Assembly (NCBI GenBank): GCA_050014195.1
Contig: JBEKDT010000002.1
Location: 123,775-187,774 of the forward strand
DNA from: Desulfomonilia bacterium
Lineage (GTDB): Bacteria; Desulfobacterota; Desulfomonilia; UBA1062
DNA: 64,000 bases
Direction of reading: 5' to 3'
Position numbers and translations under genes: made by a program
Shown: piece after piece, positions 13,568-36,570 of the stretch
How the letters are laid out: each line of letters begins with the position of its first letter
How positions within the stretch are numbered: the first letter of the stretch is position 1
The notes under the pieces: generated by a model
Database searches by the model: none
What the model was told of the DNA's origin: nothing
What the model saw: only the letters and a program-made list of their open reading frames with translations

Positions 13568-14557
13568 TCACTTTTTCTGATCACTCATTACTGCCTCCAC
13601 CTGCCTGTGGATATACTCCTTGAAGTCCAACTTTTTTTTAATGATCCTTCTTATGTCCGATCGTTTGAGCCATCTGGTGTATAGCCAGATCCATTGCTCC
13701 GGGTGTTTCCTGACTATCGAAGCCACCCAAGACTGCATGAAGTCGCTCAAAGCCTGGATGGCATCATACCCCTCTCCGAAGTACCCGGGATCCATGGCCT
13801 TTTCGAAACAGATCCGATGAGTTCCGTTCAGCTTCACGGTGTACAGCGGCAGCACCAGGGCATTGCCCTTGAGGGCGATGAATGCAGGCCCTGGGTTGGT
13901 GATGGCAGGCAGACCGAAGAAGTTACACAAAAGTGCCCTTTTGCCCTTGGTCCGCAGGTCCACCATCATGCTGATGATCCTCCCTTTCTTCAGTTCCCTG
14001 ATGAGCATGAGGGCCTTGCCTTTGGGCGGCAGGAAGGTGATCCCCGAACGGGAGCGTATCTCGTGTATGATGGATTCAAGCTGCGGATCCTTGCGTAGTT
14101 CTGCCATGTGGCAGAGCTGAATGCCGAAAAGCCTCGGGACATTCGAGAGAATCTCCCAGTTCCCGATGTGGCCCATGAATATCATGATGCCCCGTTTGCT
14201 TGCCAGGGCCTCGTCCAGGTGCTCTTTGCCCTCCACCTCGACGCGAGCATTGATCTCAGCATCGCTCATGTAGGCATATCTTATTGCATCCACCAGGATC
14301 TCTCCCTGGTTTATGAATACCTTCAGCACTATGTACCAGACATGCTTAAGCCCGAGCGCTGCTTGCATTTGGATGCTGGCAATCTTTCGGTGGAACGGAT
14401 CTACAAGCCAGGCGATTACGCCGAGAGACCGGAAAAAATTGAGAACAAAGGAGTAGGGCAGGTATCGGATAAGCCAGATCAAGACAAGGAGCATATGATA
14501 TTTTATTTGTTGCACAATGGCGGAGAATAATTTCATGCCATTAAAGGTTTGTTTCAC
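13568..14557 (-). CDS. lipid A biosynthesis (LpxL/HtrB-type) lysophospholipid acyltransferase
   Basis: 329 aa. N-terminal membrane anchor, MGHIGNWE (HX4E-type acyltransferase motif), and overall LpxL-family length. GTG start with GGAAAGGG 8 nt upstream. Confidence 0.75.
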   Translation of the reverse strand: MKQTFNGMKLFSAIVQQIKYHMLLVLIWLIRYLPYSFVLNFFRSLGVIAWLVDPFHRKIASIQMQAALGLKHVWYIVLKVFINQGEILVDAIRYAYMSDAEINARVEVEGKEHLDEALASKRGIMIFMGHIGNWEILSNVPRLFGIQLCHMAELRKDPQLESIIHEIRSRSGITFLPPKGKALMLIRELKKGRIISMMVDLRTKGKRALLCNFFGLPAITNPGPAFIALKGNALVLPLYTVKLNGTHRICFEKAMDPGYFGEGYDAIQALSDFMQSWVASIVRKHPEQWIWLYTRWLKRSDIRRIIKKKLDFKEYIHRQVEAVMSDQKK

Positions 14558-21622: not shown

Positions 21623-22660
21623 CTACGAGAGGATAACCGCCTCACCACCCTTAGGCCGGGACTCGATATAGCCGATGACATCAGCTGATTCTTTGAGCCC
21701 TTTCAACCTGAGCATCACATCATCCGCATCTTTGGGGGATACGACCAGCGCCATGCCGATGCCCATGTTGAAGGTCCGATACATCTCTGCACCTTCGATC
21801 TTGCCGACGTCCTGAATGAAGCGGAATATGGGAGGGACACCCCAGGAGCCCTTCTCTATCACTGCGGACGAACGGGCAGGAAGCACTCTGGGGATGTTGT
21901 CAATAAACCCGCCTCCTGTGATATGCACGATGCCCTTGATCTCAAATCCCCTCAGAACATTGAGCACACTCTTCACATAGATTCGTGTCGGGGTCAGGAG
22001 TTCTTCGGCTAATGTCTTTCCAACATCTTCCAGATAATCATCAATGCGCATCTTGGCGCGCTCGAAAAGGACCTTTCTTACGAGAGAAAACCCGTTGCTG
22101 TGCAGGCCCGAGGAGTGTATCCCGATGAGGACGTCCTTTGCAGAGATGCGAGATCCATCGATGATCTTGTCACTATCTACAACTCCAACACCGAAGCCTG
22201 CAACGTCATACTCATCCTCGCGGTAAAAACCAGGCATCTCGGCTGTCTCGCCGCCGATCAATGCACAGCCGGCTTCCTGGCATCCTCTGGTGATGCTCGA
22301 TATAATGACCTTGGCACGATCCAGATTGAGCTTGCCGGTGGCAAAATAATCGAGAAAAAACAGGGGTTGTGCCCCCACGACGATGAGGTCATTGACCACC
22401 ATGGCCACAAGATCAATGCCGATACCCTCATGGTTGTCGGCCATGAATGCTATTTTCAGCTTGGTCCCCACACCATCCGTTGAGGAGACAAGGACCGGTT
22501 CGCGATAATTCCCGATATCCAATTTAAAGAGGCCGGCAAATCCGCCTATACCGCCTATGACCTCAGGCCCATGGGTGGACTTCACGCTTGACTTGATAGC
22601 CCTGACAAGAGTGTTCTGTTTATCAATATCAACACCTGCATCACGATACGTCAAAGACAT
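21623..22660 (-). CDS. purM: phosphoribosylformylglycinamidine cyclo-ligase (AIR synthetase)
   Basis: The track start 22672 is TTG, so ATG 22660 is preferred (MSLTYRDAGVDIDK). Motifs DGVGTKL and GGETAEMPG. Confidence 0.92.
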   Translation of the reverse strand: MSLTYRDAGVDIDKQNTLVRAIKSSVKSTHGPEVIGGIGGFAGLFKLDIGNYREPVLVSSTDGVGTKLKIAFMADNHEGIGIDLVAMVVNDLIVVGAQPLFFLDYFATGKLNLDRAKVIISSITRGCQEAGCALIGGETAEMPGFYREDEYDVAGFGVGVVDSDKIIDGSRISAKDVLIGIHSSGLHSNGFSLVRKVLFERAKMRIDDYLEDVGKTLAEELLTPTRIYVKSVLNVLRGFEIKGIVHITGGGFIDNIPRVLPARSSAVIEKGSWGVPPIFRFIQDVGKIEGAEMYRTFNMGIGMALVVSPKDADDVMLRLKGLKESADVIGYIESRPKGGEAVILS

Positions 22661-22742
22661 GGATACCCCCAACTTCCTACCTACTATATGAGAATATTGA
22701 GCTAGTCAATCCGCCAATGAAGGTGATGTTTATCACTTTAAG

Positions 22743-22780
22743 AAAAAACAGGATGGCGGTTTGGGCATTGCCCGCCATCC
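22743..22780 (-). terminator. intrinsic terminator (minus strand) inside the purM upstream region
   Basis: The minus strand reads GGATGGCGG-GCAATGCCCAAA-CCGCCATCC followed by TGTTTTTTCTT. This is a 9 bp GC-rich stem with a U-tract. Confidence 0.7.
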
Positions 22781-22889
22781 CTAGAGGAGGTAGTTAGGAG
22801 TTATGTGGCTTTGAAGAGGGGTTCCAACTCTCTTCGGTTTCTAGTTTCCTTTAGTTGTTGTTATCGTAATCCCCTTATTCACCAGATGA
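22743..22889 (-). ncRNA. candidate sigma-54-dependent small RNA (about 147 nt), novel/unclassified
   Basis: It is bounded by a consensus sigma-54 promoter (22916-22900) and the intrinsic terminator (22780-22743). No ATG occurs in the interval. It has an internal hairpin GAAGAG..CTCTTC and an unpaired CCUCCUC stretch. The TSS position is inferred, not observed. Confidence 0.45.
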
Positions 22890-22899
22890 CTACCTAATC

Positions 22900-22916
22900 A
22901 GCAATGGTCGTGCCAA
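22900..22916 (-). promoter_or_regulatory. sigma-54 (-24/-12) promoter
   Basis: The minus strand reads TTGGCACGACCATTGCT, a full match to TGGCAC-N5-TTGC(A/T). It is the only such match I found in the intergenic regions I scanned by eye. Confidence 0.7.
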
Positions 22917-23013
22917 CATATCTCATGACCATCTATCAATCTGTATTTCCAGGTTGATTTTGATAATTAGCCAAATTCTAACCCACTCAAGTGCTCACCA
23001 TGAAACCTCAAGG

Positions 23014-23062
23014 TGTATATTTTATATACAATGGAGGTATACAGTTGTATAAAAGATATACA
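23014..23062. promoter_or_regulatory. cluster of TGTATA/TATACA inverted repeats (putative enhancer-binding-protein UAS)
   Basis: TGTATAT-TTT-ATATACA (23014-23030), TATACA-GT-TGTATA (23038-23051) and TGTATA-AAAGA-TATACA (23046-23062). They lie 100-150 bp upstream of the sigma-54 promoter. Confidence 0.5.
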
Positions 23063-23119
23063 CTACCCCTTCATGGCACCATCTCTCAAACAGGGAGATT
23101 GCTTGCCGGGAGCGATGGC

Positions 23120-24910
23120 ATGAGAGTTGAAAAGCATAATCCAGGTAATTTTATGGATAATAGCGTTGGTATGTATTCCAGGAAGGCCTGGATCAAGATA
23201 TCACCCTGGGTGATCATGGGCTCCCTCATCGTAATGGTACCTATCTTCATCTTTACAACTATGGAGAGTATCAGGACCCAGAGGAAGAACATGTATCACA
23301 TGCTCAGTGAGAAGGGCGATGCCCTCATGCGCTCATTTGAGGCAGGCACCAGGACGGGTATGATGGGCATAGGTTGGAGCGGGGCCCAGGTCCAGCGCCT
23401 CATCATGGAGACTTCGCAGGAGCCGGATATCCTCTATATCCTTATAACGGATAAGGATGGGAAGATCGTTGCCCACAACAAGGTTCAGAATATCGGGAAG
23501 ATGTATGGACTCGATATCGACCAGGCGCGGTTAGGTCCCATTATCAGGTGGAGGGTGCTCACCGATGATAAAGGCAGGCATGTATTCGAGGTATATCGGA
23601 GATTCCATCCTTCCCGAAGCGGGATGATAATCCTCAGGCGCAAAACACCCCTCCATGACTGGTTCTACCCCCATATGATCCCGAAGATTGAAAGGCCCCC
23701 CATACAGACCATCTATGTGGGGCTTAATATGGAACCCGTTGAGCAGATCATTAATGAAAACATAAAACAAAAGATCTTCCTGGCTGTGATCCTGTCGATG
23801 TATGGCCTGCTCGGGATCGTCTCCATCGTCATTGCACAGAACTACCGGTCCACCAAGGCATCGCTGTCGCGGATCAAGGCCTTTTCAGATACGTTGGTGG
23901 ACAATATGCCCATAGGGCTCATCTTCATCGGCGAGAAAGGCCGCATAGTGACGCTCAATGATGTTTCAGAGAGACTCCTCATGATCGCGGCTTCCGAGGT
24001 AAGGGGCAAGAAGGCAAAAGACGTGCTGCCCGAACAGATCGTAAGCCTCATCGAAGATATTCATGACCCACGTGATATAGCCGTGCGAAACCTCCGTGTT
24101 CCCCTGCAGGAAAAGATCATGGTCTATGAGGCGAGCGCGAGTTTTTTAACCGATGAAGACAATAATTTCCTTGGCCATATAGTACTCCTGCGGGATATCA
24201 CCGAGATAGAGCACCTGAAGAGGGAGATGGAGCGTAAAGAGAGGCTTGCGGCCATAGGGAGCCTTGCTGCCGGTGTGGCCCATGAAATCAGGAACCCTTT
24301 AAGCTCCATCAAGGGTTTTGCCACCTACTTCCAGGAGCGCTACCGTGATATCCCTGAAGACCAGAGGATTGCCGGGATCATGGTAGGAGAAGTCGAACGC
24401 CTCAACCGGGCGATCAGCCAGCTCCTGGATCTCTCCCGGCCCATGGATCTGAGAATAAAGACAACCTCGCTGGTTGAGCTTCTTAATCGCTCTGTGGAAA
24501 TGGTTGAAAAGCAGGCCTTAGAAAAAGGCATCACTATCGACCGTACGGGGCTTCCTCAGGATCCTTGCAATGCGGAAATAGACCCTGATAAGGTGGGCCA
24601 GGTACTGCTTAATCTTTTTCTGAATGCCTTTGAAGCCATGGAACAAGGCGGTACCCTTACGGTTTCTATCAGGTGTGATGACAAGCCAAACAGATTTATC
24701 ATCCGTATCTCAGACACCGGCAATGGAATCGCACATGAAGACCTGCCTCATATATTCGACCCGTACTTCACTACCAAGCAATCCGGGACCGGCCTAGGAC
24801 TTGCCATTGTCCACAAGATTATGGAGGCTCATGACGGCGACATCAAGGTGGAAAGTATACCGGGTACAGGGACGACGGTTTCCCTGAACATGCCTGCCGG
24901 AGGAGTTTGA
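23120..24910 (+). CDS. two-TM sensor histidine kinase (ZraS/AtoS-like: periplasmic domain, PAS, HisKA, HATPase)
   Basis: Track ORF starts at GTG 22991. ATG 23120 is preferred because GGGAG lies 7 nt upstream and the 22991-23119 segment carries the palindrome cluster. H-box AHEIRNPLSSIKGF, plus N, G1 (DTGNGI) and G2 (GTGLGL) boxes. Confidence 0.85.
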   Translation: MRVEKHNPGNFMDNSVGMYSRKAWIKISPWVIMGSLIVMVPIFIFTTMESIRTQRKNMYHMLSEKGDALMRSFEAGTRTGMMGIGWSGAQVQRLIMETSQEPDILYILITDKDGKIVAHNKVQNIGKMYGLDIDQARLGPIIRWRVLTDDKGRHVFEVYRRFHPSRSGMIILRRKTPLHDWFYPHMIPKIERPPIQTIYVGLNMEPVEQIINENIKQKIFLAVILSMYGLLGIVSIVIAQNYRSTKASLSRIKAFSDTLVDNMPIGLIFIGEKGRIVTLNDVSERLLMIAASEVRGKKAKDVLPEQIVSLIEDIHDPRDIAVRNLRVPLQEKIMVYEASASFLTDEDNNFLGHIVLLRDITEIEHLKREMERKERLAAIGSLAAGVAHEIRNPLSSIKGFATYFQERYRDIPEDQRIAGIMVGEVERLNRAISQLLDLSRPMDLRIKTTSLVELLNRSVEMVEKQALEKGITIDRTGLPQDPCNAEIDPDKVGQVLLNLFLNAFEAMEQGGTLTVSIRCDDKPNRFIIRISDTGNGIAHEDLPHIFDPYFTTKQSGTGLGLAIVHKIMEAHDGDIKVESIPGTGTTVSLNMPAGGV

Positions 24911-26274
24911 TGATGGCAATCACGAGTAACAGAAACATATTGGTAGTGGATGATGACTTCAGCCATCGCACTATGCTCAAGACCTTGCTATCGGGATGGG
25001 GCTATGAGGTGAGTGAGGCCGACGACGGCCAGGCAGCCGTCAATATGGTCCAGGAAAGACCTTATGACCTTATCCTTATGGACATAAGAATGGTCAAGGT
25101 GTCAGGTCTTAAGGCACTTGCAGTCGTCAAGGAGACCAACCCTGCTATCCCGGTGATCATTATGACTGCTTATTCATCGGTCGATACAGCCATCGATGCC
25201 ATGAAAAAAGGGGCCTATGAATATCTGACAAAACCTCTTGACTTTGAAGAGCTGCGTTTGAAGATGGAACAGGCCATGGAACACAGCATGCTCAAAGAGG
25301 AGAACCGCCTCCTGCGCGAGCTTGTGGGTGACCGCTTCGACACCGGGAGCATTATCGGCAGAAGCCCGGCCATGATCCGGCTTCTGGAAACCACTGCCAG
25401 GGCCGCTTCCTCGGATGCAACAGTTCTCATCACCGGTGAGTCGGGGACCGGCAAGGAGATGATTGCCGGCGCCATCCACTTCAATTCTCCCCGGAAAGAT
25501 CACCCTTTCATAAAGATGAACTGTGCCGCCATATCCGAAGGCCTGCTCGAATCCGAGCTGTTCGGCCATGAAAAGGGATCATTCACCGGAGCATTGCGCC
25601 GTAGAGAGGGCCGCTTCAAACAGGCCCACGGCGGCAGTCTCTTTTTGGATGAGGTCAGCGAGATGCCGCTGGCCATGCAGGTCAAACTCCTGCGTGTGCT
25701 TCAGGAAAGAGAGATCACCCGTGTCGGCGGCGAAGAGGTGATACCGGTGGACGTTAGGATCATTGCGGCGACCAACAAAGACCTCCCAACCCTTATAAAG
25801 ATTGCCAGATTCAGGGAAGACCTTTACTATCGGCTCAATGTCATCAACCTTTCCGTACCCCCGTTACGTGAGCGCGCCGAGGATATCCCCGTGCTGGCTG
25901 AACATTTTTTAAAGATGTTTGCCATCAAGAACAACAAACCCTTGAAAGGCTTCACACCACAAGCCATGGACCGGCTCATTAAACACCCGTGGCCGGGTAA
26001 TGTACGCGAAATGATGAATACTGTTGAGAGCGCTGTAGTCCTATCCAGTTCAACCTTTCTTACGGACGGAGACATCCCCATCTTCAGGGATGAGTCGTAC
26101 AATGCTCCCCAAGAAATAGGGGCTGCAAATGCCATCAGTCTTGATGAAATGGAGCGTCTCACCATCTTGAAAACCCTGGAGTCAGTCCAGGGCAACAAGA
26201 GCGAGGCTGCAAGAAAGCTAGGGATTACACGGGCCACGCTTCATAAGAAGCTGAAAAAGTACTCAGTACCCTGA
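24910..26274 (+). CDS. sigma-54-dependent response regulator (NtrC family: REC, AAA+, HTH)
   Basis: ATG overlaps the kinase stop (TGATG) and GGAGGAG lies upstream. REC (VVDDD...DIRM), Walker A GESGTGKE, the GAFTGA-type loop GSFTGA, and a C-terminal Fis-type HTH (NKSEAARKLGITRATLHKKL). Confidence 0.92.
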   Translation: MMAITSNRNILVVDDDFSHRTMLKTLLSGWGYEVSEADDGQAAVNMVQERPYDLILMDIRMVKVSGLKALAVVKETNPAIPVIIMTAYSSVDTAIDAMKKGAYEYLTKPLDFEELRLKMEQAMEHSMLKEENRLLRELVGDRFDTGSIIGRSPAMIRLLETTARAASSDATVLITGESGTGKEMIAGAIHFNSPRKDHPFIKMNCAAISEGLLESELFGHEKGSFTGALRRREGRFKQAHGGSLFLDEVSEMPLAMQVKLLRVLQEREITRVGGEEVIPVDVRIIAATNKDLPTLIKIARFREDLYYRLNVINLSVPPLRERAEDIPVLAEHFLKMFAIKNNKPLKGFTPQAMDRLIKHPWPGNVREMMNTVESAVVLSSSTFLTDGDIPIFRDESYNAPQEIGAANAISLDEMERLTILKTLESVQGNKSEAARKLGITRATLHKKLKKYSVP

Positions 26275-35124: not shown

Positions 35125-36570
35125 TCATGCCCCTTCAACATAATCCCCATAGGCACTGTCGCTCCGCCTGAGACGTTTCTCAAAGTCCGTTCTTTGTTGT
35201 GCCGCCTCCTTCATGAGATGATATCCATATTGTCTGTGAGAGACTTCAAGGGCTCTTACCGCTTCTTCAGGAGATACGAATAACGGTATTTTGTACTTGT
35301 TCCGGTAGAGAATAGTCTTTTCTGCTGCATTGGGAGTGTAGATGGCTGCAGGCTTGCCGTATTCATGGCACTTCTTCACAAGCTCCATGATGGCCTCGAT
35401 GACCATTGGGTGCCACAGGCTGGGCACAGGAAGGAGCCCGTCAACCTCTTCAGACGACAGGAGGATATCGAAGATCTCCAGAAAGGTTTGCATGGACAGC
35501 GCAGGTCCGAGATCTATCGGATTCGAAACATTAAAAATCCGGCCGGTCCTTGAAAGACGCTCCTGGGTTTCAGGAGACAGCTTGGCCATCTCAAGGCCTG
35601 CCTGGACGAGCAGGTCTGCCGTAATCCCGCCGAAGGCCCCGGAGTTTGTAAACATGGCAATCCTCTTGCCCTTCAAGGGCGGCATGTGGGTAAATATTTT
35701 GGGCAGTGAATGCAGCTCGGAAATGGAATCGACCCGGATGACACCTGATTGTTTGCAGGCATTCTCGAAGATAAGATCATTGTTCGCCATACCTGCGGTG
35801 TGCGACTGGGCAGCACGGACACCCTCGGTGGTCCTGCCCACCTTGAAGGCGAGTATGGGTTTGTGGACTTTTTTCGCAATCTCCATGAATTTACGGCCAT
35901 CCTTGATATTCTCCAGGTACATGCAGATGACTTTGGTCTTTTCATCGGTGTTGAGGTATTCGATCATGTCCGCCTCATCGATATCGCTCTTGTTGCCGAT
36001 ACTCACGACCTTTGCAGCCTTGACCACCTCACTCATAAAGGACTCCAGCACGATCACCACAATCCCGCCGCTCTGGATAATATACGATATCTCACCGCTT
36101 TCCTGGATAAAGGTATCGAAGTTGTCCTTCTGTACACCGTAGAAGCAGCAGAACTTATTTTCGGTATTGAGCACACCCAGACAGTTGGGTCCCATAATGC
36201 GCATGCCGTAAGCACGCCTGATCTTATCGATCTCTTGTTGGAGGGTCTTGCCCATTTCTCCGCCCTCGGAGAACCCGGAGCTCTCGATGACGATCCGCTT
36301 GATCCCTCTCTCACCGCACTGCTTAACGAAACCCGGTACCACCTTGGCCGGGGCAATTACAATGGCAAGGTCCACATCGCCTGGGATATCCGTAACATCG
36401 GTGTACCCGGGGCATCCATACACTTCTTCTCCCTTGCGGTTTACTGCATAGACAGCACCTTGAAACGGTGAGAAATCATGGAGAGATCTGCAGATTGTTG
36501 CCCCGAGATTGAATGGTGAATTGGATGCCCCGATCACTACAACAGACGAGGGATTAAAAAACCTATTCAT
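35125..36570 (-). CDS. ADP-forming acyl-CoA synthetase alpha-type protein (CoA-binding + CoA-ligase domains, no ATP-grasp)
   Basis: 481 aa. FNPSSVVVIGAS, MGPNCLG, IIQSGG and SHTAGMA (phosphohistidine loop). RBS AGGAGG. Confidence 0.75.
   Translation of the reverse strand: MNRFFNPSSVVVIGASNSPFNLGATICRSLHDFSPFQGAVYAVNRKGEEVYGCPGYTDVTDIPGDVDLAIVIAPAKVVPGFVKQCGERGIKRIVIESSGFSEGGEMGKTLQQEIDKIRRAYGMRIMGPNCLGVLNTENKFCCFYGVQKDNFDTFIQESGEISYIIQSGGIVVIVLESFMSEVVKAAKVVSIGNKSDIDEADMIEYLNTDEKTKVICMYLENIKDGRKFMEIAKKVHKPILAFKVGRTTEGVRAAQSHTAGMANNDLIFENACKQSGVIRVDSISELHSLPKIFTHMPPLKGKRIAMFTNSGAFGGITADLLVQAGLEMAKLSPETQERLSRTGRIFNVSNPIDLGPALSMQTFLEIFDILLSSEEVDGLLPVPSLWHPMVIEAIMELVKKCHEYGKPAAIYTPNAAEKTILYRNKYKIPLFVSPEEAVRALEVSHRQYGYHLMKEAAQQRTDFEKRLRRSDSAYGDYVEGA

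Follow-up and report, generated by a model that had tools for sequence, protein, structure and literature searches.

What does a sigma-54-dependent promoter transcribe when no protein-coding gene lies between it and the next terminator? This question is raised by the intergenic DNA that separates purM from a divergent operon encoding a sensor kinase and a sigma-54 activator in an uncultured Desulfomonilia bacterium (GenBank assembly GCA_050014195.1, contig JBEKDT010000002.1, positions 123,775 to 187,774 of the forward strand; these 64,000 nucleotides (nt) are hereafter called the window, and all positions refer to it). A preliminary description of this DNA, made from its letters alone, had proposed that the adjacent two-component system drives a divergent small RNA that depends on sigma-54 and fits no recognised family, and our comparison with orthologous loci supports this proposal through the conservation of the promoter and its upstream sites, the conservation of the RNA core and the lack of any Rfam match. 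It also points to an origin: we consider, with a probability of about 0.7, that the region holds the gene of a sigma-54-dependent small RNA, which originated as the 3' untranslated region (3'UTR) of a zraP-like gene. The descent of the core from such a 3'UTR is shown by comparison of the sequences, and the RNA itself appears to be a selected product.

An RNA core descending from a zraP-like 3'UTR

The genome collection was scanned with an alignment of the kinase, yielding 80 best matches, and 41 orthologous genome loci were compared. In 26 of these 41 loci, a minus-strand sigma-54 promoter lies 110-510 nt upstream of the kinase; one is likewise present in every clade member for which enough upstream sequence is available. 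In nearly all of the 26 genome loci, the gene downstream of this promoter specifies a small secreted protein, in which a signal peptide, a Gly-rich stretch and an LTxxQ-type helix can be recognised. These proteins match the Pfam family Metal_resist (PF13801) and, for some of them, also LTXXQ (PF07813), corresponding to the ZraP/CpxP/Spy group; the best NCBIfam model for the relatives' protein is ZraP (42.5 bits, under the cut-off). The divergent zraP gene is present in the relatives (PF13801) and absent from the window. Contigs with kinases 53-80% identical to that of the window mostly share the order purN-purM, X, divergent kinase-activator, L212 and L001 being devoid of the purM context.

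Three states are found side by side in these orthologous loci: the 3' tail may follow the full gene, follow a truncated one, or stand by itself. In the long form, a Metal_resist gene of 150-161 amino acids (aa) is followed by the core (L083, L084, L087, L209 and L212, with kinase identities of 76, 72, 66, 56 and 57%, respectively). In the short form, no gene is called and the core is kept (the window, L081, L088, L002 and L210, the last four with kinase identities of 80, 60, 54 and 53%); the metagenome contigs L128 and L156 are near-identical to the window. The remnant form is represented by L086 (67% kinase identity), with a 54-aa leftover of the signal peptide and N-terminus, and by L001 (57%), with a 39-aa open reading frame (ORF). 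This ORF is Lys/Cys-rich and lies between the promoter and the core, and a 1-nt insertion shifts its frame in the close relative L137; it is therefore more readily seen as a decaying remnant than as a gene.

The forms share an end block, (C)CUCUUCAWAGC...CUAWCU-ACCUCCUC-N2-5-GGGAUGGCG-loop with UGCCC-CGCCAUCCC-U7-8, which in the long forms constitutes the final ~80 nt of the zraP-like mRNA 3'UTR. When the window transcript is compared pairwise with the long forms, homology is found only at the promoter (~27 nt) and in the last ~80 nt (22820-22743), while the ~70 nt between promoter and core are unrelated filler. Because homology is confined to the promoter and the 3' end, the "gene" of the window is what remains, promoter and 3' end, of a zraP-like transcription unit whose coding sequence was deleted. 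No coding sequence stands between promoter and terminator in the window, whereas the core does occupy a 3'UTR position in L083, L084, L087, L209 and L212. Since the core sits 3' of a zraP-like gene in these orthologues, the window RNA descends from a 3'UTR-derived class of which it is no longer a member by position.

The extent of the RNA given in the preliminary description needs to be qualified: a transcript of ~147 nt is still predicted, but only its last 78 nt align with relatives. The variable 5' part gave no convincing alignment to the long-form loci and only patchy similarity to L081, and a GAAGAG..CTCTTC hairpin described earlier, although present in the window, falls partly within this non-aligning portion. 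The core itself consists of a C-rich stretch with the invariant ACCUCCUC, followed by the hairpin GGAUGGCG...CGCCAUCC and a U-run. The proposed intrinsic terminator, GGATGGCGG-N12-CCGCCATCC at 22780-22751 (minus strand) followed by TGTTTTTTCTT about 110 nt downstream of the promoter, was confirmed as a G+C-rich hairpin of 9-10 bp (22781-22750). For the final 78 nt, the predicted fold is precisely this hairpin, with a stem of 10 bp (-19.2 kcal/mol; z = -2.7 relative to shuffled sequences). In contrast, the fold of the whole RNA of 148 nt is no better than that of its shuffles (z = -0.36), so that the terminator alone stands out. The element ACCUCCUC is unpaired in both the minimum free energy and the centroid folds and belongs to a putative seed, which we take to resemble the anti-Shine-Dalgarno sequence of 16S RNA. 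The interval had been described as free of ATG, and this is the case upstream of the hairpin, but two ATGs lie within the terminator stem-loop (transcript positions 113 and 123). An accessible seed and a Rho-independent terminator with a U-tail, as indicated by the folds, fit an Hfq-type small RNA, features that are permissive rather than diagnostic.

Regarding known families, Rfam 15 gave no match at the gathering score across the whole window. A search of 22600-23150 at E up to 10, covering the interval for which the preliminary description had suggested such a check, returned only a yeast snoRNA and a microRNA at chance level, and no Rfam family was matched over the element in 7 related loci. 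We then scanned a metagenome collection for ACCTCCTC-N2-6-GGATGGC-N8-22-GYCATCC, which returned 119 stretches. Together with the loci from the earlier retrieval, the pattern followed by a U-run is present in 77 loci, whereas about 40 further matches are due to chance, being located in G+C-rich coding DNA without a U-run. The UGCCC loop and the U-run are shared although they lie outside the search pattern, which supports homology. A covariance model, R1, was built from 38 non-redundant copies including the window sequence. The family it defines comprises the single-stranded ACCUCCUC, 2-6 nt, the hairpin GGAUGGC...GCCAUCC with the UGCCC loop, and the U-run; all of these are found in the window, where R1 has a single match (22816-22743, 72.9 bits, E = 9e-14). 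Independent support comes from L209, L210 and L212, which were outside the model building and score 56-71 bits. Indeed, the core was detected at E below 1e-9 in each of the 11 distinct loci that had been retrieved without reference to the RNA and whose kinase identity is at least 53%. In contrast, R1 is silent in L211 (51% kinase identity) and in about 78 loci where this identity does not exceed 47%. This predicted RNA family is previously uncatalogued and is not in Rfam.

The core is under visible constraint. Its nucleotide identity between the window and relatives reaches 70-87%, compared with 66-79% for the kinase gene and 71-83% for purM, which encodes a very conserved enzyme. In the alignment, ACCUCCUC, the stem GGAUGGC/GCCAUCC and the UGCCC loop are invariant, and stem and loop are also invariant in the 11 loci obtained independently of the pattern. 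The rest of the intergenic DNA, beyond the promoters and activator sites, is not alignable among relatives. Outside the clade, a CCCTCCT(C/T) motif lies directly 5' of the zraP-like terminator in L020, L021, L023, L010 and L031, loci in which the covariance model is silent; it may represent an older or a convergent C-rich 3'UTR element.

Promoter retention and repeated loss of the gene

All the sequence features listed in the preliminary description were recovered at the positions given there. The complete match to the sigma-54 -24/-12 consensus first seen on the minus strand at 22916-22900 was recovered, the exact TGGCAC-N5-TTGC lying at 22915-22901 and being the sole exact match in the window. 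By chance, 0.17 such matches are expected, and at least one occurred in 16 of 100 shuffles of the window. A chance match is thus not negligible, and the weight of this promoter comes from its conservation across the orthologous loci; taken by itself, the lone match is suggestive, not decisive. One-mismatch matches were observed at 2809-2823 and 35655-35669 (both plus strand), a number within chance expectation. From the usual promoter spacing, transcription is predicted to start near 22889-22890.

The TGTATA/TATACA repeats previously noted at 23014-23062 resolve into two TGTATA-N5-TATACA palindromes (23062-23046 and 23030-23014, spacing 32 bp) with a half-site between them, which in relatives reads CCTGTATAG or ACTGTATA. 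In most short and long forms of the close clade, the palindromes begin 113-114 and 145-146 nt upstream of the -24 element. The features expected of control by an enhancer-binding protein (EBP) are present, that is, predicted sites within 100-200 bp upstream and an adjacent activator with GSFTGA and Walker A motifs. The preliminary description had also suggested verifying the conservation of promoter and terminator in orthologous loci, and both are conserved within the close clade.

The distribution of the zraP-like gene was examined on a neighbour-joining tree (300 bootstraps) calculated from 1005 columns of the joined kinase and activator sequences. All block-bearing loci group together as a single clade (100% bootstrap), all outgroups carry the gene, and gene-less states occur at five separate positions, the groupings that separate them having bootstraps of 74% to 100%. 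The window and L081 fall within a 100% clade with the gene-bearing L083, and L086 lies within a 100% clade of gene-bearing loci. The pair L002 and L210 is 100% sister to the gene-bearing L103, L185 and L209, with the gene-bearing L212 just outside (100%), and L088 is sister to this whole L002/L210/L103/L185/L209/L212 group (89%). Finally, L001 and L137 branch at the base of the block-bearing clade. Since regaining the same orthologous gene is implausible, the tree suggests at least five independent losses of the coding sequence. The spacers between the -24 element and ACCUCCUC in the gene-less loci measure 81, 124, 160, 193, 98-129 and 274 nt, and their fillers are unrelated in sequence; these differences in length and content support separate loss events. 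The sigma-54 promoter is kept in every gene-less case with enough sequence, and nearly all of these cases have at least one palindrome whose start lies 113-114 or 145-146 nt 5' of the -24 element, the strict palindrome pattern finding none in L001.

A further short form was seen in L164 (~880-1170, oriented), where an activator site, a sigma-54 promoter and the core (88-nt spacer) have no adjacent kinase. Upstream of them lies a PP-loop ATPase-like ORF, and just downstream are a tRNA (1608-1679) and two homologue copies of the window ORF 13568-14557.

The core is also found outside this genomic context. About 40 metagenome loci, which we call class B, carry it as a stand-alone unit in unrelated gene contexts and without a sigma-54 promoter (for example L090, L094, L100, L113, L117 and L142, plus about 35 more). 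Their cores are preceded, at 21-47 nt, by a two-part motif, aTG(C/A)ATCC-N15/16-CATC(A/T)AAA, which is promoter-like, not sigma-54-like, and 26 of the 27 occurrences of this motif in the 3.6 Mb of sequence compared precede a core. In L174, two tandem class B copies (~815 and 1079, oriented; 264 nt apart) each have their own upstream motif. The 54-kb contig ERZ795051 NODE-581 contains both a zraP-linked long-form copy (L103) and a stand-alone copy (L141), which indicates that the two kinds coexist in one genome. Moreover, the proteins flanking some class B loci are 58-71% identical to window proteins, suggesting that these loci come from the same broad lineage as the window. In the window itself, neither a second core copy nor the class B motif was found.

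Proposed mechanism and competing explanations

From their family membership, the ZraS-like kinase would sense an envelope or metal-type signal and phosphorylate the ZraR-like activator. The anatomy of the region and its conservation suggest that the activator would bind both TGT-N11-ACA palindromes (~-133 and ~-165) and remodel sigma-54 RNA polymerase on TGGCAC-N5-TTGC. The resulting transcript, of ~147 nt (~22889 to 22743), is predicted to end at the intrinsic terminator, and its working part would be the last ~78 nt, that is, a 39-nt unstructured C-rich stretch with ACCUCCUC, the hairpin and the U-tail. The C-rich stretch may pair in trans with G-rich ribosome-binding regions of target mRNAs and thereby repress them. 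Such pairing could be chaperone-assisted, and the RNA could be trimmed first, to ~75 nt, with a possible processed 5' end near CUUCAAAGCC (~22815). In the lineage of the window, the coding sequence was deleted, leaving the promoter fused to a short filler and the core.

A bolder version of this proposal, possible in our view if on balance doubtful, holds that the indispensable output of the ZraSR-like system is the anti-Shine-Dalgarno-mimicking small RNA and not the chaperone, which would have been discarded at least five times, while sibling copies would be placed on a second, non-sigma-54 stress promoter. If true, this would amount to a two-input post-transcriptional envelope regulon and to a documented route from a 3'UTR RNA to an autonomous small RNA gene.

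Several points weigh against a 3'UTR-derived, sigma-54-dependent small RNA acting in this way. The start site and size of the RNA, as well as its dependence on RpoN and on the activator, are predictions. Covariation in related loci, a check suggested by the preliminary description, was not observed, with 0 of 7 hairpin pairs changing on both sides, and the indication of RNA structure comes from the terminator anatomy alone; the test was low in power because most sequences had been retrieved through a pattern that fixes the stem. The target prediction suggested at the same time fared no better: among 1217 candidate start regions in the window, the 32-nt single-stranded region reached at best -30.8 kcal/mol, while shuffled seeds reach -30.2. 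The retention of the activator sites could be partly due to control of the kinase operon itself, and the terminator could be kept merely to insulate purM. Finally, stem and loop are invariant, without compensatory changes, in all family members, including independently retrieved loci, which exceeds what termination needs and hints at, for example, protein binding.

This last point leads to an RNA that would be functional without being a base-pairing repressor, either binding or sponging a protein via the hairpin and the UGCCC loop, or feeding back on the two-component system. C-rich single-stranded stretches serve as seed in many small RNAs, and the most conserved single-stranded element here is precisely such a C-rich, seed-like stretch; nothing points to a specific protein partner. 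We therefore regard this alternative as unlikely, though worth keeping in mind. An inert relic, in which promoter and terminator were simply left after the deletion of the zraP-like gene, transcribed or silent but with no function of their own, is quite improbable. It would account for the middle ~70 nt of the window transcript, devoid of homology or structure signal, for the decaying ORF remnants in L086 and L001 (the latter frameshifted in L137), and for the absence of any target identified in the window scan. Nevertheless, a relic should decay, and here a near-consensus promoter, sites at fixed distance and the core persist in at least five independently gene-less lineages, with kinase identity down to 53%. 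In addition, ACCUCCUC, which is not part of the terminator, is invariant, the core is more conserved than purM, and paralogues elsewhere have their own promoter-like motif.

The preliminary description had itself considered a sigma-54-driven, terminator-attenuated leader of purMN, acting in cis. The short distance between terminator and purM (69-90 nt) in the window, and likewise in L081 and L182 as its closest relatives, would fit, as would the purM start ranking 2nd of 1217 for seed pairing (-25.1 kcal/mol), and across 19 loci a marginal advantage of cognate over non-cognate seed/purM pairs was seen (p ~0.05, confounded by relatedness). However, the adjacency of RNA and purM is absent in several relatives, since no purM lies downstream in L001/L137, L212 and L164, and in L103 and L105 the two are separated by 1.6 kb and 6.5 kb, respectively; the paralogues that stand alone are in unrelated contexts. 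Moreover, purM is served by a conserved TTGACT/TATAGT promoter of its own, located beyond the terminator, the terminator is strong, and the predicted pairing is weak in L086, L099, L088 and L002, shuffled seeds giving -24 to -30 kcal/mol. We rejected purM both as seed target and as the gene led by this RNA: seed-purM pairing is not significant, the difference across the 19 loci being marginal, confounded by relatedness and absent in several lineages. A leader is very improbable. It is scarcely credible that the region encodes a small protein. The 39-aa ORF of L001, between promoter and core, does have a Shine-Dalgarno sequence, and an ATG within the window hairpin opens a 33-codon frame, but this ATG has no ribosome-binding site and its frame crosses the U-tract. 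This reading was rejected because the short forms have no ORF in common, the window lacks an ATG ahead of the hairpin, and the ORF of L001 is disrupted by a frameshift in L137.

Known systems and neighbouring genes

In E. coli and Salmonella, ZraR activates the divergent sigma-54 promoters of zraP and zraSR (PMC4987338). The locus studied here is similar in having a divergent sigma-54 promoter with upstream predicted activator sites, in having ZraS and ZraR/AtoC as the best models for its regulatory proteins, and in that the promoter drives a ZraP-family (PF13801) periplasmic protein in the orthologous loci. Unlike zraP-zraSR, the window lacks a zraP-like gene, keeping just the promoter and the mRNA 3' end, and no sigma-54 promoter was found toward the kinase (no match in the window at up to one mismatch); furthermore, all three proteins are under the NCBIfam equivalog cut-offs. 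The more distant orthologous loci L003-L008, L013, L015 and L017 have an additional sigma-54 promoter directed at the kinase operon, TGGCAT-N5-TTGC, which precedes the start of the kinase match by about 25-65 nt, an autoregulated layout as in E. coli zraSR.

The second system to be considered is CpxQ, a small RNA released from the 3'UTR of the cpxP mRNA (PMC4817254), where chaperone and small RNA are two outputs of one transcript induced by the cognate envelope-stress two-component system. Similarly, the long-form relatives carry the RNA at the 3' end of an mRNA for a protein of the CpxP/Spy/ZraP superfamily. In contrast, there is no sequence or Rfam similarity to CpxQ, and the promoter here is of the sigma-54/EBP type rather than CpxR/sigma-70. 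As the parental gene is deleted in the window, the window RNA would be a primary transcript, unlike CpxQ. GlmY beside glrK-glrR and Qrr beside luxO, which the preliminary description had put forward as analogues, do match in layout, with an activator beside a short, sigma-54-driven, terminator-ended RNA gene; GlrR/glmY are listed in PMC4987338. However, they are not homologous (no Rfam match at E up to 10), their counterpart in the window is traceable to the 3'UTR of a protein gene, and its family has paralogues under a non-sigma-54 motif. Because the RNA is the surviving 3'UTR of a deleted zraP-like gene, zraP-zraSR together with CpxQ/cpxP are closer analogues than GlmY or Qrr, CpxQ being the nearest in function.

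Taxonomically closer cases are known in Desulfovibrio vulgaris, where sigma-54-dependent non-coding RNAs are predicted beside activators (DVU0653, DVU0679, DVU1419 and DVU2359 regulons), the DVU1419 regulon being annotated as envelope stress response plus non-coding RNA (PMC4641369). These belong to the same phylum-level group and follow the same design principle, a likeness drawn by description only, and R1 finds nothing in the Halodesulfovibrio orthologous locus L031. A last comparison concerns GlnZ, whose parental mRNA is transcribed from a sigma-54/NtrC promoter. GlnZ is likewise a 3'UTR-borne small RNA, of the glnA mRNA in Enterobacteriaceae (PMC9731577), but gene, lineage and sequence differ and the parental gene is retained there. 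Sigma-54 small RNAs beside activators and 3'UTR small RNAs of envelope-stress chaperone genes were already known, whereas orthologous transitions from 3'UTR to orphan RNA with the sigma-54/enhancer module retained seem to be new; we found no publication on a zraP-linked 3'UTR small RNA.

Small RNAs derived from mRNA 3'UTRs are regarded as one of the main origins of new regulators, and the step from mRNA tail to independent gene is rarely caught. Since the sigma-54 promoter and enhancer are kept at each loss, it becomes testable whether the RNA or the protein is the selected output of a ZraPSR-type system, and the orthologous loci offer a second testable question, how an orphaned 3'UTR RNA evolves. 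Members of the family abound in metagenomes from anaerobic digesters and sediments, and they belong to a bacterial class in which post-transcriptional regulation is unstudied.

The coordinates of the RNA gene, its control region and its neighbours in the window are collected in Table 1.

Table 1. Predicted features of the intergenic region and flanking genes (window positions).
Feature	Position	Strand	Remarks
Sigma-54 promoter TTGGCACGACCATTGCT	22916-22900	minus	GG at 22914-22913, GC at 22902-22901
Distal activator (EBP) site TGTATATCTTTTATACA	23046..23062	minus	predicted; TGT-N11-ACA palindrome, centre ~-165
Half-site TGTATAC	23037..23043	minus	between both palindromes
Proximal activator site TGTATATAAAATATACA	23014..23030	minus	predicted; palindrome centre ~-133
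Variable 5' transcript part	22821..22890	minus	no ATG, no conserved ORF; filler at the site of the former zraP-like coding sequence
Conserved RNA core (~78 nt)	22743..22820	minus	C-rich single-stranded region, terminator hairpin, U-run
Putative seed CAUAACUCCUAACUACCUCCUCUAG	22781..22805	minus	ACCUCCUC at 22791-22784, invariant, predicted unpaired
Intrinsic terminator	22743..22781	minus	10-bp stem GGGAUGGCGG/CCGCCAUCCU, 12-nt loop including AUGCCC, U-run 22748-22743
Sigma-70-type purMN promoter TTGACT-N15-TATAGT	22683..22709	minus	neighbour, outside the RNA; conserved in syntenic loci
ZraS-like sensor histidine kinase	23120..24910	plus	596 aa from ATG 23120
ZraR/AtoC-like sigma-54 activator	24907..26274	plus	response regulator; GESGTGKE, GSFTGA

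The identification of the divergent genes as a kinase and an NtrC-type activator is borne out by their domains (PAS, HisKA and HATPase_c in Pfam for the kinase; receiver, Sigma54_activat and HTH_8 for the activator) and by the GESGTGKE and GSFTGA motifs of the latter. The best NCBIfam model for the kinase is ZraS (395 bits, cut-off 479), and for the activator, ZraR and AtoC score equally (528 bits, cut-offs 760 and 714); from these scores, the likeness to ZraS/ZraR is at the family level, not at the equivalog level. The kinase homologues are labelled by their sources as proteins of Desulfomonilia or "Deltaproteobacteria" metagenome-assembled genomes. As suspected earlier, the kinase had probably been over-extended by its GTG start at 22991. 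The true start is most likely ATG 23120, because the resulting 596 aa match most homologues and because the GTG start would place the conserved activator sites within the ORF; the ATG start frees the regulatory DNA. On the other side, the purM signals given before (ATG at 22660, TTGACT at 22709-22704 and TATAGT at 22688-22683, with a spacer of 15 nt) were found again and are conserved in syntenic relatives. The G-rich short purM leader (UUGGGGGUA before the ATG) is, like the purM promoter, highly conserved across the clade (22660-22709 in the window, minus strand).

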